A DNA stretch of 64,000 nt from Candidatus Omnitrophota bacterium. GTDB taxonomy: Bacteria > Omnitrophota > Omnitrophia > Omnitrophales > Aquincolibacteriaceae. The stretch's first letter is position 1. Each line of letters opens with the position of its first letter. The stretch covers positions 600 to 64,599 of the forward strand of contig JAHFHF010000006.1 in the NCBI GenBank assembly GCA_023247055.1, in the 5' to 3' direction. The notes beneath the pieces are model-generated. The model ran no database searches and was not told the origin of the DNA. It worked only from the letters and a program-made list of their open reading frames with translations. Positions 1 through 22,100 of this stretch are shown piece by piece. Made by a program: the position numbers and the translations under genes.

Positions 1-3000
1 CCGAACTCCGAAACGATTCCGGGCGAACTTGTGGTCAACGGCCGCTATTACCAATTTACTTCTTCGGGATACAATGACGAAGCGGCGGGCATGGAGGGCG
101 GATGGGCGCCCGATCCAAACTCCTACCGGTTTGTGGATGCCGCCGGCCAGCCGGATGAATATGGACAGCTGCCGGTCTATACTTCAAATCCGCAAACAGG
201 GCTGGTCACCCTGGCCGACGGCTTGACTTACCGCGTGGTTGCGCCGGATTCCGCCATCTCCGGCGGGGAACACGTGCTGCTGGTGGAAGTGCGCCAGGAC
301 AAACAAATCATCAATCCCTTCCAGCAAAGCGGCTGGAAGGCGCTCGAGATCGATGGCTTGTCTTATCTGGTTGAACTGCGCGATCAAAAACCTTATGCCC
401 TGCATCGCGAGGGCGTGACCGCGCTTTTTGATGAAGACGGCCGCATCGTGATCGACGGCAAGACTTACCGCATCGGCATGAACGACTATTATTACAATTC
501 AGTCAAAACGGGAGAGGATGGCCGGGTGCAGGCGGTTTATACCGATGAGCGCATCACCTACGGCAGTTATCCGAATATCCGCGTCTTTCCGCCCAATGCC
601 TTTACGGCCGCCGACCGCGAGTACTTCCTGGTGGAAGATTTGGGACAGGCGGAACTTTACCGCACCGAACATCATTGGCTCCCGGCGGGATATACCCAGA
701 TTTTTGGCAAAACCACGCTCAAGATTGATTACGAAGATTACGAAATTGCCAAAGTCACGCACCGCGGCTTGGAACTCGTGGCGTTTATCAAATTGGATGC
801 GCTTGGCAATCGCACGCAGATGGCCTATTACATGCGGCCCGACGATCAGGAAATCACGCTCTCCGGCGGACGCCGCTTCCGCATTGTGGGCGATGTGACC
901 GGTATTCAAAAATCGGCAACGCTGGTGGAGATCAGCCGCGCGGGCACGCTCGGCAGTGTGAGCGGTTTTGAAATCCTGAACGGTGAAAAACTGACGCCGG
1001 GTTACGGCTATACGCATGCAAGTCAGCCGCTGGCCGTCGTGCTGGACGGCGTGACCTATGAAGTCTTTCCGCGCAATGCCGCGGGCCGTATTTTTGCCAC
1101 CGACGGCCGCACGGTGTTGGCCAGCGATGCGGACGGTATTTTGAATATCAACGGCCGCCGTTTCCGTCTCGAAGAAGAAGCCGTCACGTATGAGATTTTC
1201 AACGATACGCGTGTTTCGCATTTGAACTACTACCTGACGGAAGACTCCTCGCGCCGCTACCGGTTGAATTCCGTGAGCGATGCGGCGGGCCTGCCGCAGG
1301 CTGAACTTCAGCCGCTGACAAGCGACGGAAAATATTTTGCCGCGGCGGACGAAGTCACGCTTTTTGACGGCCTGCGCTACCGCATGACGGTGAGCGCCAA
1401 AGGTGAGGTTTCCTTGACCGAAATCAATCCGCCGGCGCGGCGCGAAGCGCTGGTCAGCAAAGCTCCCGGTTTTCAATTGACGCGTCTGGCGCTGGAAGCG
1501 GGTGATGGTTCCGCCGGCCGCAATCAACTTGTGGCCAGCCGCCAGACGGGCGCCGTGACAACCGATACGCTGGGCCTGCGGCATACTCCGCTTGTGATTT
1601 TGGGCGAATCCTATGAAGTCGTGGAGCGCAGCGACGGCACGTTTGAATTTTATCCGGCCCGCAAAGTCAATGTGGATGAAATTCTGGCAGCTTCCGGCAT
1701 TCAAAATGCGGCGGAAGCCAATGCCTGGCGTGCGGCGGTGGAGAAGAGTTTCACGGCCCAAAGCGTTGCCAGCGATAAGATTTCGGGGACGGTTGTTCTG
1801 GACGGCATCCGCTACCGTATTTCCAAACATCCTGTGACCGGTGCGGTCGAACTTGCCGGCCGGGATACACGGGTCAAGCCGGACGCCGATCCCTTGGTGG
1901 CCGGCAGTATTGATTTGACGGTCTGGAAAAATACGGACGGGAGTTATTCGGTTTACTGGCCGCTGGACAAGACCGTTTACCGCGGCGACGGCGTCACCAA
2001 GACGGTGGTGCTGGGCAACTCGGTCAAATACGATATCGCTGAAGACGCGGCGGGACGCATCACGCTCAAGGAATCCACCCGGGTGATTGCCGCGCCGCCT
2101 TTGGCCCAGGTCATCGAAGTCTATGGCCGCAATTACGGTGTGGTCAAAAATACGGACGGCACGTACGCCTTCTATGACGGTTTGTATACGTATAAGTCGG
2201 ATGCCCAGGGCAAGACCGTGAAACTGGGCGAATTTATTCTGGCCAGCTATGACGACTACCTCAAACGCAGCGCCGAAGGGACGCTGGATGAAGTCCGCGG
2301 CGTGCTCTATGACATTGAGGCCGACGGACCGAACCATGTCCGCCTGGTTGATCATCGTGAGGCTGAAACCAAGATACAGCTTTTTGAATTGGGCGGGCGT
2401 TTCTATACCAGCGGCCGTGATACGGTTGGCCGTATCACGCTCAGTGACTATGCCACGGGGGAAATCGTCCTGCGTATTCCGCAGGGCACGAGCGAACTTG
2501 TCTTTGACCGCGAGACCTATACGTTGAGCGTTGACAGTGTGACCGGTTTTATCCGCCTGGTTTCGAGCCAAAGCCAGAATGCCTCGCGTGACGCGCAGGT
2601 TTTGCGCCTGGGCGAGCAAATCTATCTGGCTTCGGCCATGGGTGACGGCCGTTTCCAGTTTTATCTGGACGGGCAGCCGTTTATTTCCCAGGCGGCGGCC
2701 GGACGCGTGACGCTGGGCGACGGCCTTGAATATCATGTGACCGCCGGCGCTGACGGCCGCATTCAGCTTGAGCAAAAATATATTGACGCCTTTTCCGAGG
2801 AACGCATGTCCATTCTGCTGGACGGCCAGATCTATGACATCCTGCACACCGGCAGCCACCGCTGGCGCTTTACGGATGCCGCGGGATTGTCTTTCGACAG
2901 CGATGCCGTAACGATGAAAGTCACAATCGGCACGCTTATGTATGACTTGGTCGAACATGCGGACGGCAGCGTCACCGCGATTGCTCAAAACGATATTTCG

Positions 3001-6000
3001 ACCTCGCTCATCCGCAAGGTGGTCAATATTGGCGGCCTGCTTTATGTGGTCACGCGCCAGACGGACGGCCGCTTTGCCTTTACGGCCGGCAATGTCACGG
3101 CTTATGCCGCGCTCTCCGGCCGGCTGGATCTCGATAAGGTCTTTACGGTCACGTTCAACGAAACCACCGGCCAGGTGCGCGTCACGGAAACGGTCGTGCG
3201 CCGCAGTGCGCCGGTCGAACTCCTCGAAATCAAACAGCCGTCGCTGACGCGCCGCATGACAGTTGCCGGAAAAACCTATGACCTGAAGTATGACCGCGTG
3301 GACATGCTTGAAACCAGTCTGACCGGCGCGGAAATTCACAAACAGCGGCCGCTTTTCCAGTTTACGGATGCGGGTTCGGGGACGGTCTATGAAAACCGCA
3401 CTTATAAATTCGGCGGGTCGGTCGGGGCCTGCTCCAACGAAGAGTGCGAGAGCCAGGATATTTTAAGCACGGACCGTAATCAATTTGCCATGGATCTGCC
3501 GGAGGCCACGTTGAAACTCGAGGATTGGCCGCGGGTCTTTGCCTTTACCATCATGATCGACGGCAAATCCTACCTGATGTCCGAGACCGAGGCGCACAAG
3601 CATACGTTCTTCAGCGAGGACAAGTATTACCACTCGTGGATCCAGCCGTGCGGCGAAAAGTGTATTCAGGAGTTTGTCGAACTGCCCGACGGCAAAGGCG
3701 GTTTTGTTAAATTCGAACTTTATTACAGCAACAAGTACTACGACGAACCGGCTTCACAGGCGGATTTTGTGGGTGACCGGCTGCTGGTGAGAATTGACGA
3801 TGCGGCCGGGGCGGCCGACATCCGCGTCATTCCCAAGATGGAAATTCCGACCGAGCCGGTGGAAACGTCGCAGTATTATCTGGCGGAACGTTCGGCGCAG
3901 GACGGCCGTTTGACCCTGCGTGAGGAAGCGACCGGGCGTGCGTATGAGGTCAAACAGCGCATTTCGATCGACGGCCGCAATTACGAGGCGTCCGTGGATA
4001 GCGCAGCCGGCAAAGTTTCGCTGACCGAAGAACACGCGGCCAGCACGCGGGTGCCGGGGCGGCTGGCCGTGCGCGTGGGCCGGGATGCCGCCGGTTACAG
4101 TTATGAACTCAAGACCGACGGCCGGTTTGAATTTTCCGACGGCATTCATACCTATTACAGCACGCGCGAAACCGGCCGGCCGCAGGTCATCTTGTCGGAT
4201 GGAAACGTCTACACCATCGCTTACAACGCCGAAACCCAGGAATTGGCGTTGACCGAGCGCTATGAAATTTCCACGCCGGCCGGAGCGGGCCGTTTGAATG
4301 TCGGCGGTACGGTGTTTACGTATACGATCCGCGCCGATGGCAGCGTGCGTTTGACGGCCGGTACGAAAACCTATGACAGCCAGGGTGAGATGGACCTTGT
4401 CTCGGCGCTCAAACAGCCCATTCAGTACAAACTGCGCGAAGGACAAACACTGCCGGCCGGAGAAACGTCCACGGTGCCGGGTTATAGCGGCTTACGCTGG
4501 GAAGACGCGGGTATGGGCGTGACCAAGCCCTATCTGGTGAAGTTTGATCCGGCGGCAGGAACGTATACCGTGCGTGAAAAACCGCTGCCGGTGGACCCGC
4601 AGGACTATGTGGCCATCCGCGGTTTTGCCAAGACCTTGCAGGAAATCAAAGCTGCCTACGGCGCTTTCGGCGACACGAGTGATATTTATGATGCTGAAAA
4701 TCTGAGTTCACTCAATTACGACCGGCTCTATGACGCGGAGTATGAGCACAACAGCCTGAGCGGCTACAACAGCCAGTTCCTGTCTAACTTCAATGCCTAT
4801 GAACTGACGCTGCGCACAGGCCTTGCGCCCTGGCAGGACAGCCCGGTGGCCCTGGTGGATTACCGGGACGGCGTGCCGGACAGCAGCCTTGTCGGCTCTC
4901 AGGCGAAACTCGCGGGCGCTTATGACATTCTCTTTGATACGCCCAACCATACGCCGGGCAGCAGTTATCTGCCGGTGCGCGAATTGCAGGTCTATCAGGA
5001 TGAACTGCGCATCATGCACCCCTGGATTAACGGCGTGGAGCGTGTGTTTGAACCGGTCTACAACGACAATGCGGGCATTAGCCTGGAAACCGGTCCGTTT
5101 GCGGTTTTTGCCGGTGATACGTCAACCAACTACCGCAACCGCGGCGTGACGCTGAATGGCAAAGCCTATGACGTGGCCATGGATCCTGTGACCAAGGCGC
5201 CGGTCTTTACGGAACTTTCGTCCTACCGCGCGGCGAATGCGGATGAAGACGTTCTGCTGGTCTACCACCTCAAGGATGCGGAAGGCAACGAAACCGGCGT
5301 GGAGTACAATTTATTCGATGCCACATTTACCGCGCTGGATGTTTTCAAAGGGGTGATTCAGGCCCGCGCCAAACTTGGCGAGGCCTATGACTATAAGAAC
5401 CCGGCCAATACCTGGGAGAAGTTGTCCCTGGCGGACATCGAGGCCCAAGCGCAGACATTCCAGTACAATGCCCTGACGCGCAACTTTACCCTGCATGGCG
5501 TCAACTACCGCGTGTTTGAACAGCCGGTGAGCGGCGAAGTTTCAATTCTGCGCGCGGGCGGTACTCCGCCTGTGGTGCTGAACGCTCTGAATACGATCGA
5601 ACACAATGACCGGCTGTATGAAATCCGCAGGAATGAAGACGGCCGTATCATCCTGACCAGCGATACGGGGGAAGAGTTCCCGAGCGATCCGGACGGACAG
5701 ACGCTCAGTATCGACGATTACCATTTCGATATCAGCCGTGATCCGCTGACGCAGGCCTGGAAACTGAAGGAGCAGAGGGTTGAAAGCTACTACGGCGATT
5801 TGGCCGTTGTGGATGAAACTTCAGACGGCGGCGGCCGCATCTCTGCCCATTTTCATTCCGTCGCCAATCCGGGCGTACCCCTTGGGTTTGAAGTGCCGGG
5901 TGCCGGAACCCAGGTTGAATTTTTGAATCAAGCCGTGATTGCCGGGCCGGACGGGCAGGAACATGGTTTATTTGTGTTCCGGATTGGCAGCAGTTTTGTG

Positions 6001-7140
6001 CTTTCTGACGGGCTTAACGGCGGTATTACACAAGTGCCGGATCAATACCGTCAGATTACGATCGACGGCCAGCGCTACCAGGTTCAGGTGTTTACGAACT
6101 CTTCGGGCCAGACCCTGGCGCGCATTGAAAAAGTGCTGCGTACCCTGGATTCCAAGCCAGGCGTGCGCGCGGACGGCAAACTGTATCAGGTGCAGGACAC
6201 GCCCGGCAGTTATACCGTTCAGGTTGGCGGCAGTAAGCGCAAAATTACATGGGTGATGGCCGTCTGTGCCGGCGCCATGTGCCGTGATGTGGACCCCACG
6301 CCGTCTTACCTGCCGTTGGAATTAGAATCCAATCCGTCGCGCAATACCATTACGCTCAACGACGGCATTGAACGGACGCTGGTCATTGATCCCGATGAAC
6401 CCACGAATGTGGATATCCTGCCGGATCAGATCACGAGTTTTGATCTGCCGGATTTGAAACTGGGTAAACGTTTCTTCTACAGCACGGTCCATGCGAACGG
6501 GTCAGTCACGCTGACTGAAACCTATAGCGCCGATCCGCAGACTTACATCTCCGATCCGCTGACGCGCGAAGTGACGATCAACGGAAGAGTGTGGAGCGTT
6601 CAGGTGGCGGGCGGCAAGGCCGTGCTTACGGCGCGGAACATCAAGGAAAGCAGCGCGCTGCCGGGAACTTATGCGGAAGTGGACGGCCGTATTTACCAGA
6701 TTGAAGCGGATGCCCAAAACCGCTGGGTTTTCAGCGACGTGTATCTGTCCGGCGTGGCTTTCACGAGCACAGCCGACGGCAAGAGCGTGACGATTCATGA
6801 GCATGTTTACGATATCAGCGCTGCAGCGGGTAAGGTTTCTCTGAAGGAGCAGCCGCGCTCCTATCCGGTGAAGGAAGATCACGTCATTCTGAACAGCCGC
6901 ATTTACAAGGTGCAGATCGTGCGCGATATCCTGGGGCTGGAACGCGCCTGGCTGTCGGACGGCACGAACCTGATGGTCTCCGGCGAATTTAAAGATGCGG
7001 ATGCGGTCAGCGGCGAAAACAAACAGGCGCGCGCCGAAGTCGTCATTGACGGTAAAACCTTCCTGGTTTCGATTGAGCGCGATCCGTCTATTTACAGCAC
7101 TTTGTCGGATGAATTCCTGATTGTGAAACAGATTAAGCCC
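1..7140 (+). repeat. Array of degenerate beta-hairpin repeats with core h-x-h-x-G-x-x-Y-x-h, then 3-6 residues, then (D)G-x-h-x-h. The period is variable, about 25-60 aa.
   Basis: Translation shows tens of units. Examples are EVTLFDGLRYRMTVSAKGEVSLTE, TVVLDGIRYRISKHPVTGAVELAG, RVTLGDGLEYHVTAGADGRIQLEQ, MSILLDGQIYDILHTGSHRWRF, EVTINGRVWSVQVAGGKAVLTA and EVVIDGKTFLVSIERDPS. Similarity is at the protein level only. The nucleotide sequence is not repetitive. Confidence 0.6.
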
Positions 7141-10100
7141 GCGCCGGCGCAGGGCGGCGGCACGAGCGGTATGGAAGGCTATGAAAGCGGGGACGGCGAT
7201 CAGGACATTTTTGAGGAGTTAGGGCTGAACGACATGCCCGGCGGCGGAGGGTCCGAAATTCCCGATTGGCAGCAAGAACAACAATGGCAATTTGAAAATC
7301 CGGCGATTGCGCAAACGTCTACGCCGCAAATTACGGAAGTCCTCAAAACGGATGGCAACGAACGCTGGGTACGCATCCGCGCCCGGGTTTGGAAGTCGGG
7401 GGCTGCTGCGGTCAGTCTGGACGCGCCCCGTATTCAATCGAGCGCCGCTGAACGTCTAAGCGTCAACGGACAGGATGTTTTTGCAATTCAGGAACCGGCT
7501 GAAACCAGCGGCCGGCCAGACGGACAGCCGGGCGCCCAGGGCTATGTGCTCAATCCCAATGCGGGCATGCTGCGGTTTGTGACGCCCACGAAAGTTTTTT
7601 GGACGGAAGGGGCCACTTCAAGTGTTTCGTTTGGAGATGGGATTGTCTACCGCGTGAGCGGCGAGCCGGGAAGCCATGTCACTCTGCGTGAGACCGGTAC
7701 GGCTTCCATGGCTGTGCAAACCATGCAAATCGACGGGCGTTTCTATACGGCTTGGCAGGACCCGGATGATCCCAGCCATGGTTTCCGCTTTAACGACGGG
7801 TTTGGCGAATACGCCAGCGTCCGCGATACATTCGGTTTCTATGAACGCAACGGCGTGCTGACGTCCGCGCCTTCGCGGATGGGCGCGGGCCGTTCCAATC
7901 CCGAAGGCATGGCCGCAGCCGACATTCTGCCGCAAGCGGGCGCGCGCGAATTGGGAGAAAAGTATACGGCCAATGAAATGAATTACCGCATCAACCTGAC
8001 GGCCGACGGTTTCTACCAGGTGGGCTTGTCGGCCGCGCTCAGTGACGACATGACGGACGCCATCCGCCGTGCAGGCGCTCTGAAACTGGAACCGGAATAT
8101 GTTTTTCATGTGTTTCTGGACGGCCACTTCTACGGCGACTTCTATCTGCAGCCCGGCGAAGATTTCCGCCAGGCGGCCGTGAAACTGCGCCTGACCCCGG
8201 GCGAGCATGATTTGAAGATCGTCTGGGATGTGCCGGAATTTTATCAGCAGAATCAGCTCACGGGCGGTGCGGACCTGCGGGTGCGCCGCGTGTTCGTCAT
8301 GGCGGACCAGACTTACCAGGCGGATCTCAATGGGGACGGAGCGGTCAATGATGCGGACGAAGCCCTTTTGACGGCCCGGCTGACACCGGCCGGATTTCAG
8401 GCTGAGACTTCGCAGATCACCGGCGCGCCCGAACGCGAAGAAGTTGAAGGCGCGGTCAGCCGGCTGGTGGCGGACAATGTGCTGGAAGCCAACGGCATCC
8501 GTTACGAAGTTAGCCGCCAAAATGGCAAGTTCATGCTGGATAACGGCCGCAAAGTCTATGAGGTGGCGCCCGATGCCGCGCAGGTCAATTTGGATGGTTA
8601 CGTCTACACCTTGGTGATTGAAAACGGGCGGCTGACCGGCATGGTGGAAATCCTGCCGGATGTACGTCCGGTGGATTTGGATGTGATTGAAGCTGCCGGC
8701 CGCGTGCTTTCCGTTCAGCAGTCGGCGGACAATCCGCACGAATACCGCTTCAGCGACGGCACGAATCTATTCCTGAGTTCGGCGGCGAGCATGACGGTTT
8801 CACTGTATGGTTTGGTTTACGACATTGAAGAATTGGGCGGCGGCGGTGTTCATGTCAGCGAAGCGGCGGTTGAACTGGAACGCCCGAGCGATACGGAACT
8901 GAACCTCAATGGCACGCGCTATCTGGTGCAGCGCCTGGGTGATGGATCGTATGTGTTCTCCGAACCCGTGGAGTTTGAAGATTCTGCGATCCGTGACGGA
9001 CTGGAACAAGTCGAGATTGGCGATGTGAATTATTTTGTGGTGCGGGATCAAACAAACCGCATCCAACTGCTTAAAGAAGTCCCGGAAACCAGCCGGCTTC
9101 TAGCCCAGACGGTGGTTTTCATTGGCGGGACGAGCTATGCCGTCACGCCGGATGCGGATCATGCCGGCGAATGGATTTTCCGCAGCCCTGCGGCGCAGTC
9201 GGCCACACAGAATCGTGAAATCACTCTGAGCGGCAAGAAATACCGCGTTGATCTGGATCCGGCAAGCAGCGTCTTGACGGTCGCGCCGGTCAGCTTCGGC
9301 AGTCTGGATGTGGATAAGAACGGTCTTGCTGACGCGCAGGATTTTGCGGCCATTCAGAGCCGCTTTAATGCGCAAATTGTGACAAAAGATCCGCAGCAAG
9401 CGCAGCAGCTCGGGGCGCAGGTTGATTTTTGGTGGACCCGCATTGCCGCGGCCGCAGGCACGGAGTACGGGGACTATGGCTTTACGTATACGTTTGATGC
9501 GCCGTCGGCCGGTGATTTTATGCTGGGTCTGAAGACGGCCATGCTGCCGGTGTCCGGCGCGCCGGTTCAGTTTGATCATTTTGATTTCGACGTTTTTGTG
9601 GATGGGTCCGCCGTACGCGCTGGAATTCTGCGCGCCGATGCGTCCAGCGGTTATGTCACCCATGAAATGCCGGTAACCCTTGCGGCCGGCACGCATCAAT
9701 TCCGGTTTGTCTGGTCCAATCCCGTGCCGCGCGTCAGTTTTGGCGTGCAGTCCGCCAGCTTGCGTGACAGCGATTACCTGGCTGCAGCGGATCTGAATCA
9801 GGACCGGCGCATTGATGAAAAAGACCAGGCTCTGTTCCTGGATCAGACCGGCTCAAGCGCCTGGACCCAGGCCCTTGCGATTGGCGCCAAAACCTACACG
9901 CTTTACCGCCGTCCGTCCGGCGCCATGCGGCTGGTGGATGCGGCCGGTACGGTGATTCCGAGCGACGATCAGGGCCGGTTCTTTGTGGTGAGCGGCAAGA
10001 AATACTGGATTTCGGGCGCTAAAGATTCGGCGGTCACGCTGGTGGCCGATCATGCGGCAGATCTCAATAAAGACGGTTTGATCAATGAAGCCGATGATGC

Positions 10101-13100
10101 TTTTCTGGCCGCTGCTCTGGCCGCGCATCAAGTGGACACCTTTGCCGAATTGCAGGAATTTGAAGCCTATGAAAAAGCCTCGGATACCGGCGCCAGCATT
10201 CATGGCCTTGTTTCGAAAGGAACCAATGCCAGCGGCGAAGGCGCCATGGGCTTCATGATGGGCTTTGGCGGGGGCGAAGAAGGCAGCCTGATGGCCAACG
10301 GCCCCTCGATCAGCTTTGATGAGACTTTGGCGGAGGCGGGCGATTACCGTATCGGCCTCTCCGCCCGCAGTTTCAGCCACGAGTTTCTGCCGGCCTGGCA
10401 GGGCTGGCAGGTGACCGGCGGTTCCAGCAGCGCGTTTACGCCCGAAGGCGCAATTTCCGTGCAGCCGGGTAATCACTGGTCGAATATGCAAAGCTGGATT
10501 GAAATCAATGGTTTGAATTTTGCCGCGGACAACCGCACGGTCCTGCTGCTGAATATGTTGACCGATGCCGGCAGTTCGGGCCGCGTCTACTTCAAGCGCA
10601 CGGGCGATACCGCCTGGGATGAAGAACGCAGCGTCGACTTTGACTTAATCGCCGACGGGAACGCCCATGAATACATTCTGTCCATGAATGACAGCGAACT
10701 GTGGAATGGCACCATTACCGGCCTCAAGATCGTACCCTCGGATGAACCCTCGCACTATGAAATCCTCGGTGCGGCGTCGCGCCAGTCGGTCGATCTTCCG
10801 GCCGGGTCCGAATGGGGTCTTTACGGGCCGAAAGAAACCAGCAAGTTCCGCTATGCGGTCGTGGTTGATGGTGTTCAGAGGGGGACGTTCGATGTGCCCT
10901 GGAATAAGACGCAGGAGAAAGAAGGCTATGCGGAAATCCAGCTCAACGCTGGTGCTCATCACATTGATATCGTTGAGATGAATTTTTACGACTATCCCTA
11001 CGCTTCGATGGCGGCATTTAAATCCTATGTGTCCAAGACTCTTGTACGCCGGATTATGCCGGCGGCGGATCTCAACGCGGATAATTATGTGAATGAGGCG
11101 GATGCGCGGATTCTGGATACGCTGCGCTCGCGTTTCGAAGCGCCGAACGTTATCGGCCTGCAGGAAGAATTCTTCTCGATTTTGGATAACGGCGACCTGA
11201 CGCACCGCTTTGTGTCGCGCACGGCGCAGGGCCGCAGTTTTACAAGCGACCCGGCCACGGGGCAGGTCACCATTAATGGCGTCAAACTGCAACTCGGCTA
11301 TGATGAAGAGCGCGAGCTCTGGCAGGCGTCGCTCTTTGGCCGTGGCAGTGTCAACGTTTATGATCAGGTTCTGCAAATCGGCACTGAGAAAATAGGCGTT
11401 ACGCGCCGCAAAGACGGCAGTCTTCTTTTCACGGCCTTTGAGCGCACGGAGCCGGTGACTTTTGAATCCGATCCTGCGGCTGAACAAGTCACGATCGGCA
11501 CGCAGACTTACCGTATTGAACGGGATCCGGAGACCCTGCAGGTGCGTTTGTTTGAAAGCGCAGAAACAGCGGGGCCCAGCGGCTGGCAGTCAGCCGTGGC
11601 CGGCGGCGTTGCCGTGTGGGTGCGGCGCGAAGCGAGCGGGCTTGTTTTCCGCACCGGCGGCGAAGACCTGGAATTTAACCCGGAAACACGCCGGCTTTCG
11701 ATCCACGAGAAAAACTACACGCTTTTTGAAAACCGTCTGGGTCAGCTGACGCTGGTGGAAGTGGATCCGGCTGATCTGGACGGCGACGGCCTTGTGACTT
11801 TTGCCGATCAGGCCTTGATGAAAGCCTCGCTGGGCCGGCAGGCCGCATGGACGCTGGAAGCGATTCAGGCGCGCAATGTCGAAGGCTTTATCCGCGGCCA
11901 GCGCAGTGATCAACTGTTTGCGGTCTACGGCAGTTCGGAAAATTACCGCATGGATTTTGATCTTTTTGCCGACAGCGCCCAGCCGGCGGGGCTTGCTTAT
12001 TACAACATTATGCTGCGCGCGCAAAGCTATGACCAAAAAGCCCTGCCCGCCGATTATGAATGGCAGCTTGCCGTCGCTGTTGACGGCGATGACCGCGGCA
12101 TTGTGATCATTCCCGCGACGGCAGGAAGCGTCTCCGAGGAAAGCTTGCGCACGCTCATGGCCAACGGTGCGCATACGATCAGCCTGCGCTGGCTGAATCC
12201 GCGGCCGGGAACCAGCCTGGCCATCGACCGGTTGAGGGTCGCCGAAGAAGGCGTTGATCCGGAAGCCAACCTCGTGGTGCGTTCCGGAATTCCGGAGCAG
12301 GCGATTGGCGTGCAGACCGAACATTCGGGAGCCGGCGGACAACTCATCTTACGGACAGCGGCGGGGGAAACAGTTATAACAATTCCGGCGCAGATGCCCT
12401 GGCCCGGCCCGGATGATTTTTATTGGGCGGAAGTGGATGAAAATACGGGCGCCATTCTGCGCCAGGGTTCGCTGCGTTCCGAAGATGCAGACGAAACCGC
12501 GCAATTCCTGCTGGATGTGGAAACCCTGCCGGAAGGCCGCATCCTGGCCGCGGCTTCCTGGGACGGTTTGACGGTGACGCCGTCTTTAGCGCGCGCGCTG
12601 GAACGGCTGGGTTCAAAACTGATTCGCAGCATGGATGGCGCGCATGAATGGGCTTTTGCCGGCGTCAAAGGACTCCCTCCAGGCAGTGCTTCGGAACAGA
12701 TTCAGGCGTTAACTACGGGTGACAGCCGTTTGGATTTTGATCTGGCCATAACCGGCGGCAGCCTTGAAGACCGCCTGCGGATCAACGCGGCGGACTATGC
12801 CGTCTTCCGCCAAGGCATGAGCGACACGGCTGAGACTCAGGTCTTTACGCTGCAGGGCAAGGATTATTATGTCAGCGAAACTTCACCGGGAACTTTTGAA
12901 GTTTTTGACGGAATTTTGACGAGCGTGCAAAAAATCGTGGACGGCCGTCCGGCGCTGGATCTGGGCAGCCGGAGTTTCTTTGTGGAGCGCGGCGTGAACG
13001 GCGCTATCCGCCTTGAGGGCATTCTTACCGGCGATGTTTTTAGCGACGGTCAACTCGACGGCGCAGATCAGGACTTGCTTGCGGCCAGCCGCGGCCGGTT

Positions 13101-16100
13101 CAGTTTGGACCGCCGTGACGGCACCGTGATTTTCAACGAAAGCCAGCCGCTGGTTTATGCCGTCGAAGTGCCGGAAGACGGCCTGTATTCCGTGGGCCTG
13201 GCGGCGCGCAATTTCTTCAAGGCAGGCCTGGATTGGCAGATCGAAGTGGACGTCTATGTGGATGATGAGATTTATCCGCGGACTTCATTTGACGTGCCTG
13301 CCGGCCTCAAAGACACGGCAAATTATGTCAATGACCTCGATTTGACGGCCGGAGCGCATACGATCCATTTTTACGTGCGCGACCTATACGGCGAGGGCGA
13401 CCACATCACGCAGAATCCGCATCCTGATCTTGCGGACCAGCCGGCCGGAGTGGGTTCCGCGCTTCTAGCCGAAAATTTTATTTTCCGGGCGCAGGGTTAC
13501 CGCAGTGACATGGATCTTAACCACAATCAAAGCATTGACACAGGCGATGAAACGATTCTAGCGGGCTTGATTCTGGCCGGGCCGGTCAGCGTGCAGACGC
13601 TCGAGCCCCTGCCCGTGAAAGTCCTGCGTCTGGCCGGCAAGTTTTACCGGGTCGAAATTTCCGGCACTGCCGTGACGCTGGTCTCCGGCAGTGAAAGCAT
13701 CACTACGGCCGTGGATGAAGTGATTGAGAAGAACGGCGTGTATTACCGCCTGCTGCAAGATGCCGCCGGCGAACTGGCCTTGGCGCGGGAACCGTCCGTC
13801 TACGCGTTCCGCGATCCTGCGTTTGAATTCGGCGCGAGCCGGGCGCTAGACCGTCCTGTTGTTTACGTGCGCGGCCGTTATCTGGAAATCGATCGGGCAC
13901 CGGACGGCCGCTGGCGCTTTAGCGATGCGGTTGGCGAATTCCTGTCCAATAGCGAAAAAACCGAAGTTCTGATCATCGACAAGCTTTTCAAAATCCAGGG
14001 CGCTCAGGCCGGCGAATTGTCCCTTGAAGAAGTCCACGCCGAAAGCCTGAAAACGGTGGATTTGGTGATCAATCTAACGGGGGAAGACTACAAGGTCCAG
14101 CGTGAAGGCAGCCAGTGGCGTTTTATCCTCGCGACGAATGCGGCCGTGAGTTATCTCTCCGTCGACGGTGTGGTCACGATTCAAGACAGACCCTACGCCT
14201 TGCGCTGGGATGATCAGCTTCAAGAGTTAGTTGCGGGCAATCACCCTGTTATTTCCAGTGATCTGGCCGGCCAGTCGGTGGTGCTCGACGGAGTGCTCTA
14301 TACGATTCGCATGGATACGGCCGATTCGATCAGCCTGCTGGGTGAAGGTCCGGATGCGCTCGCGGGCGGGACTGTCCCCGGAAACCTTACGCTGGCAGGG
14401 GCGGTTTATGCGGTCGAAAAACTCATCGACGGCCGTTATGTTTTCTCCGGTCAGGTGCAGAGCCGGCCGGCGGAAGAACCCATCCGGTTGTTTGACGGCA
14501 AGTTTTACAGCGTGGCGCATGACGGCGAGTATTTTACGCTCAGCCAAGGCGGAAAGAATTATTCCAATCGTCCGCGTTTAGCGAATTTGCCGGAAGTCGC
14601 ATCGACCGGTGATTTAACCGCGTTTGAATACTTGAAAGACGGTACGGTGCGGCCGGAGATCAGCGATGTCTATGACTCTCAATCCGGCACGCTGACGTCC
14701 GGCGTTTTTACGGTTCCGGGGGATCAAAACTATACGTGGACCTGGGAAATGGCCGCGGGCGGCGAGAGCGGTACCCTGAAAATTCTCAATGCATCCGGAA
14801 CCGCTGCCCTGCAAGAAACCATCAGTGAATCCATGATGTCGATGCCGGGCGGCTGGACTTTAAATTTTCTCAACCCGTTTATTTCGGGCAAGCATGCCGG
14901 CTATAAAGTCAGCTACAACACCGGAACGAATACGCTTACTCTCACGCCCGCCGGCATCACCGGCAATTTTACCGCGCCGGATGGAACGGCTTATCTTTGG
15001 GGCCTGACGCGGCATGAGCGCAAAGACTCCGGAGGGCAGCCGGATACGCTCAATGACGGTTATGTTTTCCGCCTGAGTCAAGCCGGCGGGACGGGCCTTT
15101 ATGAAAAAACCGGTATCGTTGCGAAGTCTCAAGAACTGAATGCGGATTTCACGGGTCTTGTTCAAATGGCCGGCTCGGGCTGGATGGTGCATCTGGATGA
15201 AAACAGCGGCAAACTGCGTTTTGATCCCAAGCATTCGAGCGGGAGTTTCATTTCGGCTGTGGACGATGAGCGCTACATCTGGTCGATCGATTGGACCCAG
15301 ACCGGAGAATTTATGAAGGGGTGGACCTTTACGCTGGAGGATGAGGCCGGCGTCAATACGTTTACGCGTTCCGGTACGCTGAACAGTGATCCGACTTTGG
15401 CGATGCCTGAGACGTTTCCACAGCCGTTTGAGGGTGTTTACGCGCTCGCGAATGCCGTGGAATATCAAATCAGCTTTGATCCGCAGACGAACCGTATGAC
15501 CCTGGCGCCGCAGCGCGTGCTGGTGGAAGAAAGTTCTGACCGGATTTTGATTGACGGGCGCTGGTTTGCGATCAGCGGGACGGATACCGGCAGTCTTGTG
15601 CTGACGAATGAAATTTTGGAAGAGGCCGGTCAATACCGTTTAGCCGGCGAGCGTTATGCCCAGCAGGTTGAAACGAGCATGAACGAGATGGGTTTCCCCG
15701 GGCCGCAGGTGCTGGTGCTGACGGATGAAAACGGCCGGCGCTTTGAAAGCGTTTTGAATACCACATCCGCCGCGACCGGCCAATACGGGTATAACGCCTA
15801 TGGTTACTGGGGGCCGATGTATCAATACACCCATACGTACACGGTCACGATCAAAAACATGACGTTTGAAGTGCGCCTGCCGCCCTATGATCCCTACGAC
15901 TCCAATCCGCCGCCGCTTGAAAATTATACGCTCGTGCCGTATCAGGCCGCGGCCGTAACGGCGGTTGTGCCGGCGGGGACGCTGGTGAAAATCGGCGGCG
16001 CAATTTATGCGATTACCCCCAAGCCGGGCGTTGAAAATGTCTACCTGATTAGCGACGGCCAAACGCTGACGGAAGCTGGGCTTGGCGAGCCGGTGCGTTT

Positions 16101-19100
16101 GAATGGCATCGAATACGTCATCCGCCGCGCGCCTTCCGGAGCGCTCAGTATGATCCAGCAGGTGCAAACGCTGTCCGGGCACCAGGTGATTTTGGAAGGT
16201 GTCCGGTATTCGGTCGAAGAGCAGACGGGCCGGGTCATTCTCTCCGATGGTGTTCAGTCGTTTGAGTCCGATGACGCCAAAGCGAAGATTACGGTCAAAG
16301 ACCGCCTTTATGATCTTGTGCGCACGGAAGCCGGCGCCCTGGTGCTGGTCGAATCCGGCGTGGTCCGCTCGTACCAAACCCTGGTTTTCCAAAATAAAAC
16401 CTACGATGTCCTGCGCAATAGCGACGGTTCGATTTCGCTGCTCTATCACAAGGCAACGCATGGCACGTTGGCGCCAAAAGAATCCGTCCAGATGCCTGCG
16501 CAATTGCGCTATAAAGGCGGAAATTACACCGTGAGCACGCTGGAAGACGGCCGGCTTCAGATCGAAGGTCCCGAAGGTGTTTCCACCAGCGCGGCGGAAA
16601 CGGGCCTGATTGATTTTGACGGGAAACTCTGGCAGGCCGTGCGGCTTGCGGACGGCCGCTGGACGATTGAGGGAACATTCGAAAGCGCTCCGGCCTCCGG
16701 CCAACCGCTGTTTTTTGACGGAAAGATTTACACGCTTGCCATGCAAGCCAATCAATTCGTGCTTTCCGACGGACGCGCTCACTATACGGCGGATGTCTCG
16801 GGTTTTGTGAATTTGAACGGCCGCACGTTCTTCTGGAGCGGGACCGGGCTGGAGGATTTCCAGATGTTCAACCGGCCGTATCTTGGCAGAACCGATACGG
16901 AAATCCAGCTTGAAGGTTTGAACCTGGCCTATCAGATTGAATATTCCATGATGACGGGCCCGGTCCTTAAAATCACGGATTCTGAACGCAATGCGGTTTA
17001 TACCAGCTTTACGGATCAAACCAGGGCCTTCATGGATATCCGGGGCGTTCGCTACGAGATTACGGGCAGCTTGTATGACAGCTTCGGCGAGGGGTTTGGC
17101 CTGCGGCCGGCCGCCGGAAACGTGCCGGCTTCTGCGCCCGCCGAGGAAGGAACCCGGCTTGTGGTGGAAAACCGCATTCTCAGCGTAAGCCTCAAAGCGG
17201 GCACCGGCGATATCTATCTGGCGTCCGACGGTACGGAGACGCTGGAAGTCCGGCTCGGTGAGACGCTCAACGTCAACGGCCTTCCTTATATGCTTAGTCT
17301 GCCAGCCTCCGGCGAACTCAAATTCAGCCTGAGCAGCCGCCAGATCAGTCTGGCGCAGTTGGGGCTGGATTCGACGTCCTATCTGGCTTTTGAAACCGCG
17401 GCCGGCGAATGGGCCTTCCAGGGAACTTACGATCCCACGGGTGAATTGAGCACAAGCACGGGCGGCGGCACGCTGGTCCAAATCGGCGATCTGAAATATC
17501 ACATCGAACGCCTCCCTGACGGCGGCCTCAAACTGACCGAAACCGAAGACAGCGCGCCGGTGGTTTATGAAGATCAACTCTTCCGCAGCGACTTGCAGGC
17601 CCGCACGATCCGCATTTCCGGCAAGATCTACCGGCTCGCACTTGCGGCGGACGGGGACTGGGTCTTGAGTGAAGATTACGAAACTTCGCAGGCCCTGCAG
17701 CCGGCGGTGGAAATCGGCGGCCGCAAACTGCAGTACCGTTTAGAAGACGCGCAGGTGATCTTGACGGACGGGAAAAACAGCTTCCGCAGCAGCCGCGACG
17801 GCTCAAACGTGACGATCGACCATCGCCGCTATGCGATCCAGCGCAGCGGCAGCGCGATTACGCTTTCCGAGCCGTCTCTGCCGTACAGCCAGACGATCGA
17901 TGCGCTTGGCGCAATTTGGCTGATCCGCCGCGACGCGTCCGGAAAAATCATGGCCGACAATCCCGAAACCCAGGAAACGTTTGCCGGCGATACGGCTGGT
18001 CTCGTGATTACGATTCGCGGCGTGCAGTTTGATATCACGGGCGAGGAAGGCCGGCGGATTTTCACGCCGCGTATTTCAGCCGAACCCACCCTAGCCGACG
18101 GCGCTTTCTTGCTGGCCGGCCGGATGTTCTTTTACAAGACCGAAGACGGGCAATTGACCGTGACGTATGCGGACAGCGGGGCCGCGGCCGGCGCAGCGGA
18201 CGAAAATGCCGGACTGATCGAAATCGCCGGTACCGTTTATCAAGTGCAGCGCACGAGCGGCCGGCTTGAATTCCATAAGCAAGCCTTTGAAGAAGCTCAG
18301 GAAATTTCAGGAGCGGTGTTTTACATCAACGGAACGATTTATGAGGTTCAGTATGATGAGACTGCCGGGTCTTTCGAAGTACGCAGCGGCCAGAAAACTT
18401 ACACCAGCGATCCGGCCACGGGGCATATTTTGATCGGCGAAATTGCGGCTGAAATCCGCCGCGATACCGCGAGCGGCGAAATTACGATCACGGTGCCCAC
18501 AGCAGCCAGCGTCAAGCGCGCCGACCAGGCGGTTGAACTCAAGGGCCAGATTTATTGGCTGACGCGCCTGGAAGCCGGCCGGTACGAAGTTTATGATCCG
18601 GCTGCGAAAACGCCGCATGCGTCCCGCCTTGAACAAATTGACGGCGTCTGGCTACCGGTGGTGGATCTGGCCGGCAGTGTTTACCGCGTGGTCGAAGACC
18701 GCGGTGAACGCATGCGTCTGGAAGAGGTGACAGAGGAATTTATTTCCGACGACCGCTTCAAGGTGCTGGCCGGCGGTAAGGAATACACGATCGGCCAGGA
18801 TTCCGTGGATCAACGTTTCTATCTCGATGACGGCACGCACCGTTTCTATGAAACCGGGGTGGATGGCATTATCAAGATCGGCGCTGATTCCTTTAGCGTG
18901 CGTGAACTGGCCGGCCGGCGCTTGTTTAATCCGGAGGTGGTCAAGCGCGCCGATCTGGATCAAAACGGCGAATTCAACGCCGAGGATGCGCGCATCTTGA
19001 CGCGCCTGGCCAGCCACTACAAAGACATCAACGGCGACGGTCTGGTCGATCAGCAGGATATTGACGCGTTAAATAAAATTATTGATCTCACGCCTGAGAT

Positions 19101-22100
19101 CCGTGATGCGGTGCCGGATGGTCAGATTACATCCGATGATTTTACTTCGCTTGACGTCAACCATGACCGCAAGATTGATTACCGCGATGCCAACGCGCTC
19201 AACCAGGTGGTGCAGAACCGCTTTGACATCAACCGCGACGGCCTCACCTCGAGCGGCTCCGGCGTTCCGGCGACGGATGACCTGGCATTTTTCAACGCCC
19301 TGTTTAGCCAGATCCGCCAGCTGCAGGCTCAGGGCATTGTGGTCGAGCCGGCCAAACTAAAAGCGCTGGATGTCAACAATGACGGGCTGGTGACGCATGA
19401 GGACGTGACGGCGCTTGGAAAAGTGATCGGCAAGAATTTCGATATCAATGGCGACGGCAAACTCGATGACCTGGCCAATCGCAAGGATGAAAAACGGCTC
19501 GACGATGTGATCAGCGCGCTCGCTTTGAAGATCAAACAGAACGAATTGACGCTGGCCGATGTGAACCGCAACGGCAAGGTCGATGACAAGGACCGCTCCG
19601 ACCTTTCGGAATCGATCCGCAAGTATACCCAGCTCGCGGTTGCCGCGGATTATGACGCCAGCGGCCTTTTTGATTACGGCGACCTCGTAGCCCTGCAGCG
19701 GGATGTCGGCGAAATCCGCCGCGGCAGCCTGCTCAGCCCGCAGCTGCTCTCGCGCGCGGACATCAATAATGACGGGCGCGTGGATGACCGTGACTGGAGA
19801 ACGCTGGAGCAGGGCCTGGCTTCGCACCGGGATGTCAATGAAGACGGCCGCATCGACAGCAAAGACAGCGAGGTGCTGGAACGCTATCTGAATTTCACAG
19901 CCGGCGAAATTATTCCGGCCCGCGAAATCCGGCTCGAGACGCCGGAGGGGCTCGAGAGCCAAATTACGGGCAGTCAGTCCATTGTGCTGGATGACGAGCG
20001 CTATGTTGTCTCAAAGAACACCGAAGGCGCTTATGTGTTGACGTCCCGCGACGAGACGTTTAACGCCTATGGCGGAATCAATATCGTGGAAATCGGTGAG
20101 CACATTTACGACATCTACGAAGATCCGGACGGCAAGATCCGTCTGGTGGATCAGGAAGCGCGCACGCATCAGAGCATGCACCGGGCGGATTTCGTCATCC
20201 GGCTGGGTGAGCGGGAATATGACGCTTATTTCAAAGATTACGGCCGTTTTGAATTTAAATCCGCCGAGTGCTTTGACGGAACCGAAAACTGCGAAACGGC
20301 GCTGAGCGGTTTTGACGACAAAGTAACACTGCAAAATCAGGTGTTTATCGTTGAAACCGACTCGCTGACGCGTCAGGCCGCGCTCAAAGCGGCCTCGATG
20401 CGCAGCCTGAAACGCGCGGACCAGGTCATTGAACTGGAAGGCAAACGCTACGAAGTGGTCAATCATTTTGACGGCAGCTATACGTTCAAAACGGATGAGT
20501 TTGAACAGCGCTCCGACCGCGATCAGAAACGCGTCAAACTGGACGGAATTTATTATGACATCCACGAAGATCCGCTGACGGGCCATGTGCAGCTGGCTGA
20601 ACAGCATGCGATCAGCCGGGTGCTGGCTGACCAGGTCATCCGCATTCAGCGCAAAGATTCGCTTTCCTTGTCCGAAATTTATGCCGGGGCGGATACGCGG
20701 GCGCTTTTCCTGGCCAGCCAGGGCGGACAGAAAATCGGCAGTCCGGTCGTTTATGACGATTCTTACCTAGTAAATTTCAACCTTGACGGCACGACGACCT
20801 TTACGCATGAGAAGACCGGCACGAAATACACAAGCGGCCGCTCCCAGGAAGACGGCACTTCCGTTGTGACGATTGACCGGATGGCTTTCCGTATTTTCTC
20901 CGATTACGAAAACGGCGGGATCTATATCGAGCAGGATCATGAAAAACTGGGCTCCGATGCGGGCGCCGGTGCGGGCCGCGGCCAAGTCACGTTCTTGAAA
21001 GCCGGCGAGCCGGTGACTTACGAATGGATTTATGATGATGCGACCGGCAAGCTCAAGATCAACGGTGAATGGGTCAACCCCGAAACCAATACAGCCTTGC
21101 TCGACGGCCAGCAATTCCTGATTAATTTTGATCCGGAAAAAGGCCGCCTGGCCATGGAACAGGCCTACCTGCGCTCAAGCCGCGTGGCCGATCAGCGTTT
21201 GATTCTGGAAGACACGTTGTTTAATGTTTCGCACAACAAGGACGGCTCTTTCTCGCTCTTTGACGGCGAGACCAGCTTCCGCACCAACCCGGTGTCCCGC
21301 AAGGTGACGATCCGCGGCCGGGTTTACGATGTGATTGAAAACAGCTACAGCGGATCGATCACGCTGGCCGAAGAGTACAGCCGTGAAAGCAAGCCGGTCT
21401 ATGATCAGGTCATTGAACTCAACGGCAAAAATTATTTTGTGCGTGAAAATACGCAGGATGGCATCACGGAGTTCATCCACGCTGACGAGACGATCCGCTC
21501 CACGGCCAGCCGGACCTGGCAGGACGCATCCATTGATTTTACCAAGGATAAGATGCCGCAGGGCTGGGCGCCGGAGACGGGCAGCTGGCGCATCATGGCC
21601 GGCCGCGCCGAATCGCTGGTGCAAGGCCAGCAGGCCTCGTTTGCCCGCACCGGGCTTGTGACCGAAACTGATTTTACATTGTCGGTCGATCTCTCCTTTG
21701 AAATCCTCAGCGATGAACCCGCCGCGCCTGCCGGCACAGCCGATGAGCGTCTCTGGGAAGGCTCAGTCCTCTTTAATGTGATGGATCGCGATAACGCTTA
21801 CGCGGCCCGCCTGTTTGAGCGGGGCGGCAGCCGGTTTGTGGGGTTATACAAGCTGGTTCACGGGATTGAGTATCCGCTGGCCTTGGAGCGCGAACTGCCG
21901 TTTGAGTTCAGCACGGAGACGGATTACCGCATGCAGATCCGTGTGGAGTCCGGCAAAATCACGCTGGCCATGAATGATCAGCCTCTGCTGGAGGCCCAGG
22001 ACCATTATTTCACCGGCGGCGCCGTGGCGCTCGCTGGCAAGGGCCGCGATGTTCAGTTTGACAACATCGTTCTGCATCACGCGCACGAACTGGATCAGCC

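Follow-up and report, generated by a model that had tools for sequence, protein, structure and literature searches.

Giant proteins of the "Dockerin-type" have been described in Omnitrophota by West-Roberts et al. 2023 (bioRxiv 10.1101/2023.11.21.568195), and carry EF-hand/dockerin repeats together with ILEI and C39 domains. AlphaFold models of CAILPI010000004_73 in that preprint (Fig. 6) showed a repeating beta barrel that is closest to carbohydrate-binding module (CBM) family CBM35 and whose flanking helices superpose on the dockerin 2y3n, and a ladder-like higher-order structure was predicted for these CBM35-like/dockerin-like repeats. Dockerin-bearing giants are also listed as one architectural class in a 2026 preprint (10.64898/2026.06.07.730766). 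Here we analyse a 64,000-nt stretch of a Candidatus Omnitrophota bacterium (assembly GCA_023247055.1, contig JAHFHF010000006.1, positions 600 to 64,599 of the forward strand; referred to as the window), in which a giant gene contains five CBM6/35-like modules that are bracketed, in the complete units, by two dockerin-type calcium loops.

Frame +1 of the window is a single open reading frame (ORF) of 21,333 codons with 0 stops, open at both ends, versus 752 and 1,095 stop codons in the other two forward frames. Because this ORF runs past both window ends, the gene must be longer than 64 kb, and the "ORFs" that had been listed in other frames are shadows of it.

1..63999, + strand: giant ORF, frame 1, enclosing all units, loops and the insert described below.

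The region under study (nt 7981-13580) corresponds to aa 2661-4527 of the frame +1 translation. As the same composite unit was predicted in the 2023 preprint, the region is a further example of a described kind. Like the West-Roberts subunit, it belongs to a giant ORF with Omnitrophota relatives, dockerin/EF-hand repeats and ILEI and C39 domains, and it joins a CBM35-like barrel, unannotated by Pfam, to flanking dockerin-like helices, with 2y3n as top match here too. Unlike that subunit, which is known from prediction only, the window displays no long array, since its five units are dispersed over ~1,870 aa with hairpin repeats and an ILEI domain in between; moreover, one of the units harbours a nested extra domain, and of its ten half-sites two are lost and one is weakened. 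A regular array with a period of ~250 aa was seen in the homologue P0001, not in the window.

Five diverged copies of one module

Five modules of ~100-130 aa each are spread over aa 2655-4496, with the following limits:

nt 7963..8298 (aa 2655-2766), + strand: module m1, CBM6/35-like beta-sandwich, with no recognisable upstream loop (loop A, see below).
nt 9466..9765 (aa 3156-3255), + strand: module m2, beta-sandwich in the AlphaFold 2 (AF2) model, with CBM35/CBM6 as top Foldseek matches.
nt 10300..11058 (aa 3434-3686), + strand: module m3, one module in two separated parts, N-terminal (aa 3434-3465) and C-terminal (aa 3596-3686).
nt 11935..12243 (aa 3979-4081), + strand: module m4, recognised by alignment and leave-one-out hidden Markov model (HMM).
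nt 13141..13488 (aa 4381-4496), + strand: module m5, recognised by alignment and leave-one-out HMM.

The motifs from which a repeat had been proposed in a sequence-only reading of this DNA (GEHDLKIVW, GTHQFRFVW, GAHHIDIVE, GAHTISLRW and GAHTIHFYV) are all present in frame +1. The copies are 22-38% identical to each other, and pairwise BLAST yields 18-29 bits. When HMMs were built from four copies at a time, the fifth copy was in each case the top non-training match in the 21,333 aa, at 5-18 bits, with the next unrelated matches at or below 0 bits. The copies thus align with one another and each is recovered by a profile built from the other four, as that reading had asked of a true repeat. Its count of five to six copies stands at five: the leave-one-out HMMs revealed no further copy elsewhere in the window, and GGEHVLLVEV at aa 88, considered as a possible sixth, was dismissed because the HMM did not match it. 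The "two copies" it had placed at nt 10201-11140 are really one module, m3, around a nested insert.

Searching 1.84 billion representative proteins with the five-copy profile returned 1,496 matches at E<=1e-3, 239 of which at E<=1e-10. No DNA-level repeat was found among the module copies, and recent tandem duplication was rejected for that reason. Given this absence and the identities of 22-38%, the copies are old.

The module resembles the CBM6/CBM35 superfamily

Compared with the sequences of the PDB, the five-copy profile matched the CBM35 of a cycloisomaltooligosaccharide glucanotransferase (CITase; 3wnl, E 7e-4; the same CBM35 is represented by 3wnk) and the C-terminal CBM of a xanthanase (6fhj, E 2.5e-4). 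With a profile of 29 units, the matches comprised 6fhj (1.4e-7), 3wnk CBM35 (9e-6), the CBM35 of a GH31 enzyme (5x7o, 1e-5), a beta-agarase CBM6 (2cdo, 1.6e-4) and 2wz8 CBM35 (4.8e-4). The fold points in the same direction. The AF2 model of unit 2, made from five sequences only, shows an eight-strand sandwich with a mean predicted local distance difference test score (pLDDT) of 60.7, and overall the AF2 models contain 8-9 strands with a core pLDDT of 70-85 for unit 2 (the range of its strands) and of 90-95 when a multiple sequence alignment (MSA) of 30 units was used. Foldseek of the unit 2 model against the PDB gave 46 matches at E<=1e-3, nearly all of them CBM35, CBM6 or CBM36 (best E 1.2e-5; template modelling (TM) scores normalised on the target of ~0.5-0.56). 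In addition, Pfam recognises CBM_6, CBM_35 or CBM60 in more distantly related homologues of the module.

Because profile, Foldseek and homologue Pfam matches agree, we assign the module to the CBM6/CBM35 superfamily (Pfam clan GBD), of which it is, judging from these sequence and model comparisons, a diverged and unmodelled branch. The earlier suggestion of a CBM-like beta-sandwich thereby gains support from both the solved CBM35/CBM6 structures and the CBM35/CBM6/CBM36 folds, and the family, which had not been recognised at that stage, becomes recognisable. The PA14 and discoidin domains that had been named as candidates are not the best matches, PA14 appearing once among 29 units at E 0.023.

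Like CBM35 and CBM6 (PF16990, PF03422; CITase CBM35 3WNK, Chi-CBM35 2VZP, CmCBM6-2 1UXZ), the modules are predicted to adopt a beta-jelly-roll fold, and they have in common with these families the pattern Y.f.v..aG.Y.l.l ... V.vDG ... L.aG.H.i.l. Unlike these families, they remain below threshold in Pfam, have a W-x-N motif of their own, appear to lack the region-C Asn at the aligned position, and are flanked by dockerin half-sites with no catalytic module adjacent. Within the region, Pfam finds a sub-threshold CBM_35, a half-profile Dockerin_1, an ILEI domain and little else, and NCBIfam models yielded no meaningful match there.

Dockerin half-sites lie on both sides of the module

The loops that flank the modules are listed below in order along the gene, with loop A on the N-terminal and loop B on the C-terminal side of a module, and with scores from a position-specific scoring matrix (PSSM).

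8323..8388 (aa 2775), + strand: loop B of unit 1, DLNGDGAVNDAD... followed by a helix; Pfam Dockerin_1 half-profile; PSSM 38.6.
9307..9372 (aa 3103), + strand: loop A of unit 2, DVDKNGLADAQD followed by a helix; PSSM 29.6.
9790..9855 (aa 3264), + strand: loop B of unit 2, DLNQDRRIDEKD followed by a helix; PSSM 38.8.
10060..10125 (aa 3354), + strand: loop A of unit 3, DLNKDGLINEAD followed by a helix; PSSM 39.0; AF2 pLDDT 87-93.
11068..11133 (aa 3690), + strand: loop B of unit 3, DLNADNYVNEAD followed by a helix; PSSM 35.9; AF2 pLDDT 92-95.
11773..11838 (aa 3925), + strand: loop A of unit 4, DLDGDGLVTFAD followed by a helix; PSSM 37.0.
12244..12300, + strand: loop B remnant of unit 4, …EANLVVRSGIPEQ; degenerate, with the Ca ligands lost; no PSSM match.
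13033..13098 (aa 4345), + strand: loop A of unit 5, DVFSDGQLDGAD; weakened, with Phe at Ca-ligand position 3; PSSM 16.0.
13513..13578 (aa 4505), + strand: loop B of unit 5, DLNHNQSIDTGD followed by a helix; PSSM 29.7.

The pattern of these loops, D-x-[ND]-x-[DN]-G-x-h-x-x-x-D followed by a helix, is that of type I dockerins (PF00404), and Pfam Dockerin_1 reaches 39.1 bits (cut-off 22.9) in a match to half of its profile (positions 32-56 of 57). Among the ten expected half-sites, seven are canonical (PSSM 29.6-39.0), one is weakened and two are lost; loop B is also missing after the orthologous m4 in the homologue P0026. The dockerin-like character that the sequence-only reading had given to the calcium loop is therefore borne out, by Pfam Dockerin_1 as well as by dockerin matches in the PDB. 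Its statement that such a loop follows each module holds for four of the five, the loop after m4 being degenerate. Its picture of the loop as a trailing element has to be replaced by one in which loops bracket the module, with loop A ~55 aa upstream of m2, m3 and m4 and in weak form before m5.

With the module in between, loops A and B are 160 aa (unit 2), 336 aa (unit 3) and 160 aa (unit 5) apart. The units hence do not form a contiguous two-segment dockerin of ~60-70 aa, and the canonical spacing of 24 aa is confined to other parts of the protein. As in a type I dockerin, each unit contributes two 12-residue loops with helices, in the order of segments 1 and 2; unlike in the canonical examples (2Y3N_B, 1OHZ_B), these segments are 160-336 aa instead of ~24 aa apart. 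A second comparison is with the cellulosomal CBM6-dockerin enzymes (AaBglC, 8ZVK), in which a CBM6-like module is likewise directly followed by a Ca loop and with which the unit profile aligns contiguously. In these cellulosomal enzymes, which also contain a catalytic domain, both dockerin segments come after the CBM, whereas the units of the window have one segment N-terminal to the module. Compared with such enzymes, the N-terminal-side segment would have moved to, or arisen at, its present position.

The two loops and the module form a composite unit

The association of both loops with the module was examined across the best 150 profile matches, which provided 320 module instances. Both loops were present in 27 instances, A only in 13, B only in 11 and neither in 269, corresponding to an odds ratio for co-occurrence of 51 (p 7e-21). 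The spacing is fixed as well, with loop A starting a median of 56 aa before the module and loop B starting at the module end. Because A and B can be told apart at 80% in a leave-one-protein-out classification, they are specialised halves that are not interchangeable; the consensus is D.aiL..alG for helix A and D..l[FW]….P for helix B.

A profile of 30 units had the dockerin 2y3n_B as its best PDB match (E 3e-9), with unit positions 10-35 (loop A) on residues 4-29 and positions 166-198 (loop B) on residues 32-64. This ordered match indicates that the unit is colinear with a dockerin, the CBM-like sandwich occupying the linker between the two segments. In the AF2 model of unit 3, based on the 30-unit MSA, loop A with its helix reaches a pLDDT of 87-93, the strands of the sandwich 90-95, and loop B with its helix 92-95.

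The closest relative, P0013, is 40% identical over unit 3, nested insert included. P0013 and P0026 (5,283 aa) abut on one contig, and together they align colinearly to aa 3191-8973 of the window, with 28-39% identity. Their ORFs overlap by 4 nt (L001, 1-1575 and 1572-11575; GCA_016196555.1, JACPXL010000010.1, an Omnitrophica metagenome-assembled genome (MAG)), and the split probably reflects a frameshift within one gene or a break introduced by assembly or annotation. A regular arrangement is found in P0001 (2,506 aa), which contains eight units with a period of ~250 aa, each period consisting of loop A, ~50 aa, the module, loop B and two "G..Y.v…" hairpins. Of the 18 named carriers of the unit, 17 are fragments of Candidatus Omnitrophota MAGs and one is labelled Candidatus Uhrbacteria.

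A homologous-protein search with the 1,866-aa region as query returned no match, its word index seemingly being saturated by low-information candidates. The same search retrieved only P0013 and P0151 with unit 3 as query and only P0151 with the 30-unit alignment, and no further relative emerged from genome and metagenome contigs scanned by protein patterns.

Modules of three other proteins (P0020, P0038 and P0061) match the unit profile at 60-83 bits and share the signature LP.gY…VDG…G.HtvrFtWtND. These proteins contain CHB_HEX_C_1, Fn3_assoc and fn3 domains, and a cohesin in one of them. The Pfam scan gave no dockerin match in the three, their flanking Ca loops not having been individually checked. 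The CBM6-like subfamily therefore seems to be present outside the split-dockerin context as well.

A nested insert interrupts module m3

nt 10396..10785 (aa 3466-3595), + strand: nested insert of ~130 aa, beta-rich, interrupting m3.

The first two strands of m3 (…ISFDETLAEAGDYRIGLSARS…) are parted by this insert from the FRYAVVVDG…AGAHHIDIVE remainder, so that the module HMM matches m3 in two pieces (hmm 3-41 and 22-116). In the orthologue P0013, m3 is split likewise and the insert is 39% identical. The insert has no Pfam match and no PDB sequence match. That it might be another module copy was rejected at an hhalign probability of 0.5%. In the AF2 model it comprises seven strands at pLDDT 30-86, and Foldseek of the nested two-domain model yielded uninformative double-jelly-roll proteins (birnavirus VP2, PNGase F) at TM<0.25.

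A proposed split-dockerin base with a CBM-like head

With a probability of roughly 0.6, we propose that the unit is a Ca2+-stabilised split-dockerin base that presents a CBM-like head for multivalent surface attachment. In this proposal, a complete unit would consist of loop-helix A, a diverged CBM6/35 beta-jelly-roll and loop-helix B, present in five copies in an Omnitrophota giant of the Dockerin-type. As a CBM6/35 sandwich has its N- and C-terminal ends next to each other, the flanking half-sites could pack against each other like the segments of a canonical dockerin. Such packing would create a two-helix base stabilised by Ca2+, with the beta-sandwich head inserted in the dockerin linker. 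CITase (3WNK family) is already known to contain a CBM35 as a nested insertion, which makes insertion of a CBM within a dockerin sterically plausible. The units would be strung on a Cys-free, hairpin-rich fibre that has no membrane-spanning segments in this stretch, and several weakly binding heads recognising glycans or surfaces might together attach to the envelope of prey or host.

Several observations weigh against this proposal. With regard to the head, none of the 29 units reaches the Pfam gathering score for a CBM (PF16990, PF03422), with CBM_35 touched by three units (best E 2.3e-4) and CBM_6 by one, and the best CBM_35 score in the window is 17.1 bits versus a cut-off of 28. In CBM6/35, the signatures conserved best are the Trp of region A and the invariant Asn of region C (PMC9843283, summarising Abbott & van Bueren, Correia et al.), the latter located two residues before the Asp of the structural Ca site (PMC9843283). 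Aligning 5x7o (…NVNLDRLAV) with the profile, in one low-scoring alignment, maps this Asn to profile position 110 and the Asp to 112. In that weak mapping, an Asn occurs at position 110 in 0/29 units (the window modules having R, G, Y, A and L), and conservation of Asp at position 112 is poor (5/29 units). Since the mapping rests on a weak alignment, the absence of the region-C Asn is suggestive. A conserved aromatic platform, as the sequence-only reading had proposed to look for, was not identified in the modules. Taken from these sequence patterns, canonical loop-site sugar binding by the modules is doubtful, though they may still bind sugar in another way. With regard to the base, unit 1 is without loop A, unit 4 is without loop B and loop A of unit 5 is weak, a distribution that also fits pairing of each loop B with loop A of the next unit. 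Finally, no Cohesin Pfam match was found in the 21,333 aa of the window.

The strongest rival is one that we consider unlikely while giving it real weight. The units could be structural rungs, in which the sandwiches have lost sugar binding and act as Ca2+-stiffened spacers or lateral contacts of a ladder, leaving adhesion or catalysis to other parts of the protein (ILEI, canonical dockerins, C39 domain). This would agree with the ladder-like higher-order structure predicted by West-Roberts et al. (10.1101/2023.11.21.568195), with the most conserved columns of the unit being the Ca ligands and two fold glycines and not candidate ligand residues, with the region-C Asn missing at the aligned position in 29/29 units, and with copies so diverged (22-38% identity) that W-x-N is their sole shared surface motif. 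That very motif can be turned against the rungs, however. W97-x-N99 is near-invariant, each residue occurring in 24/29 units, and its place at a strand-to-loop junction could make it a family-specific binding signature; in the window, W97 is found in m1, m2 and m4 and N99 in m2, m3 and m4, with the full W-x-N in m2 and m4 only. Moreover, BT0996-C binds polysaccharide without canonical CBM6/35 signatures (PMC9843283), and the combination of ILEI and CBM suits a glycan-facing protein.

A second rival accepts dockerin halves while placing their partners elsewhere: loop B would pair with loop A of the next unit across the linker of two hairpins, or in trans with another chain or a cohesin-like partner, and the sandwiches would be beads separating true dockerin-like nodes through which the protein assembles. 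The B-to-next-A distance is ~90 aa between units 2 and 3 and 88-97 aa in the eight-unit array of P0001, unit 1 lacks A, the lost B of unit 4 precedes the weakened A of unit 5, and canonical paired dockerins exist elsewhere in the same protein. The homologues P0004, P0041 and P0005 speak against it, however, since their isolated units, >1,000 aa apart, still hold both A and B. Likewise, the good loop B of unit 5 is not followed by any A until aa 6318, the remaining B-to-A gaps in the window are irregular (235-330 aa), and, as mentioned above, no cohesin was detected in the window. We therefore regard pairing between units or chains as improbable. We think no better of a bolder variant, in which the unit would be a Ca2+-switchable assembly element and more than an adhesin head, its A and B halves pairing either within the unit or, by domain swapping, with those of neighbouring units or chains, so that extracellular Ca2+ would zip the fibre of more than 20,000 aa into a ladder without cohesin, and the insert of unit 3 could be a new recognition domain displayed on the scaffold.

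The idea that unrelated beta-rich stretches of a low-complexity giant ORF resemble each other by chance or through their composition, which the inter-copy BLAST scores of only 18-29 bits might have suggested, is refuted by the leave-one-out test, in which each of the five copies was recovered where it should be, the 239 database proteins at E<=1e-10, the orthologue that keeps modules and nested insert, and the independent fold (Foldseek) and profile matches to the same CBM families.

The surrounding giant protein

Cysteines are scarce, with 30 among the 21,333 residues of the window and none in aa 2600-4600. Just two hydrophobic segments, both weak, were detected in the 21,333 aa (aa 10790-10811 and 11787-11805), so that no such segment occurs before aa 10790 and the stretch with the units is without membrane-spanning segments. 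The few hydrophobic segments and scarce Cys would therefore fit a secreted or surface fibre that is stabilised by Ca2+ and not by disulfides.

A beta-hairpin motif, "G..Y.[VILF]…h.h", occurs in 64 copies in the window versus 13.5±3.6 in shuffles, 57 of which lie before aa 7500. These hairpins occupy the gaps between the CBM-like units and may be what the fibre is built from. An ILEI (interleukin-like EMT inducer / FAM3-type) domain, which exceeds the Pfam cut-off at E 1.9e-7, lies between units 4 and 5 (aa 4145-4224, nt 12433-12672).

Canonical paired dockerin arrays with ~24-aa spacing are located further downstream, at nt 18952-19866, 22783-24180 and 36082-36300, with canonical dockerin positions at aa 6318-6622 and 7595-8060. 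Outside the studied region, Pfam Dockerin_1 reaches E 8.6e-51, and EF-hand_7 matches occur too. A Peptidase_C39-like domain (E 8e-10; aa 11653-11735, nt 34957-35205) is situated in the middle of the ORF, near both hydrophobic segments, with which it may form a processing or secretion-related element. The last ~7,800 aa (nt 40501-63999) have zero Pfam matches, and G+C drops from 0.57-0.62 to ~0.54 beyond nt ~42000.

Standing and significance

The composite unit is a hallmark of the Dockerin-type giants of Omnitrophota, and because its fold was predicted in 2023, the region opens no new category. What seems to be new is minor, namely that the units are dispersed, that a nested domain is conserved in the orthologue, that three of ten half-sites have decayed, that the canonical CBM6/35 Asn is apparently missing and that the family has a W-x-N motif of its own. 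As Pfam and NCBIfam models miss the unit, its profile would be useful for annotating "dark" stretches of such proteins. Moreover, the unit is compact and expressible (160-200 aa) and comes with a curated alignment of ~50 instances, making it usable for questions of Ca2+ dependence, ligand specificity and self-assembly. The giant proteins of Omnitrophota are almost wholly unannotated, and it is at present a conjecture that they help the cell to attach to other microbes or to prey on them.

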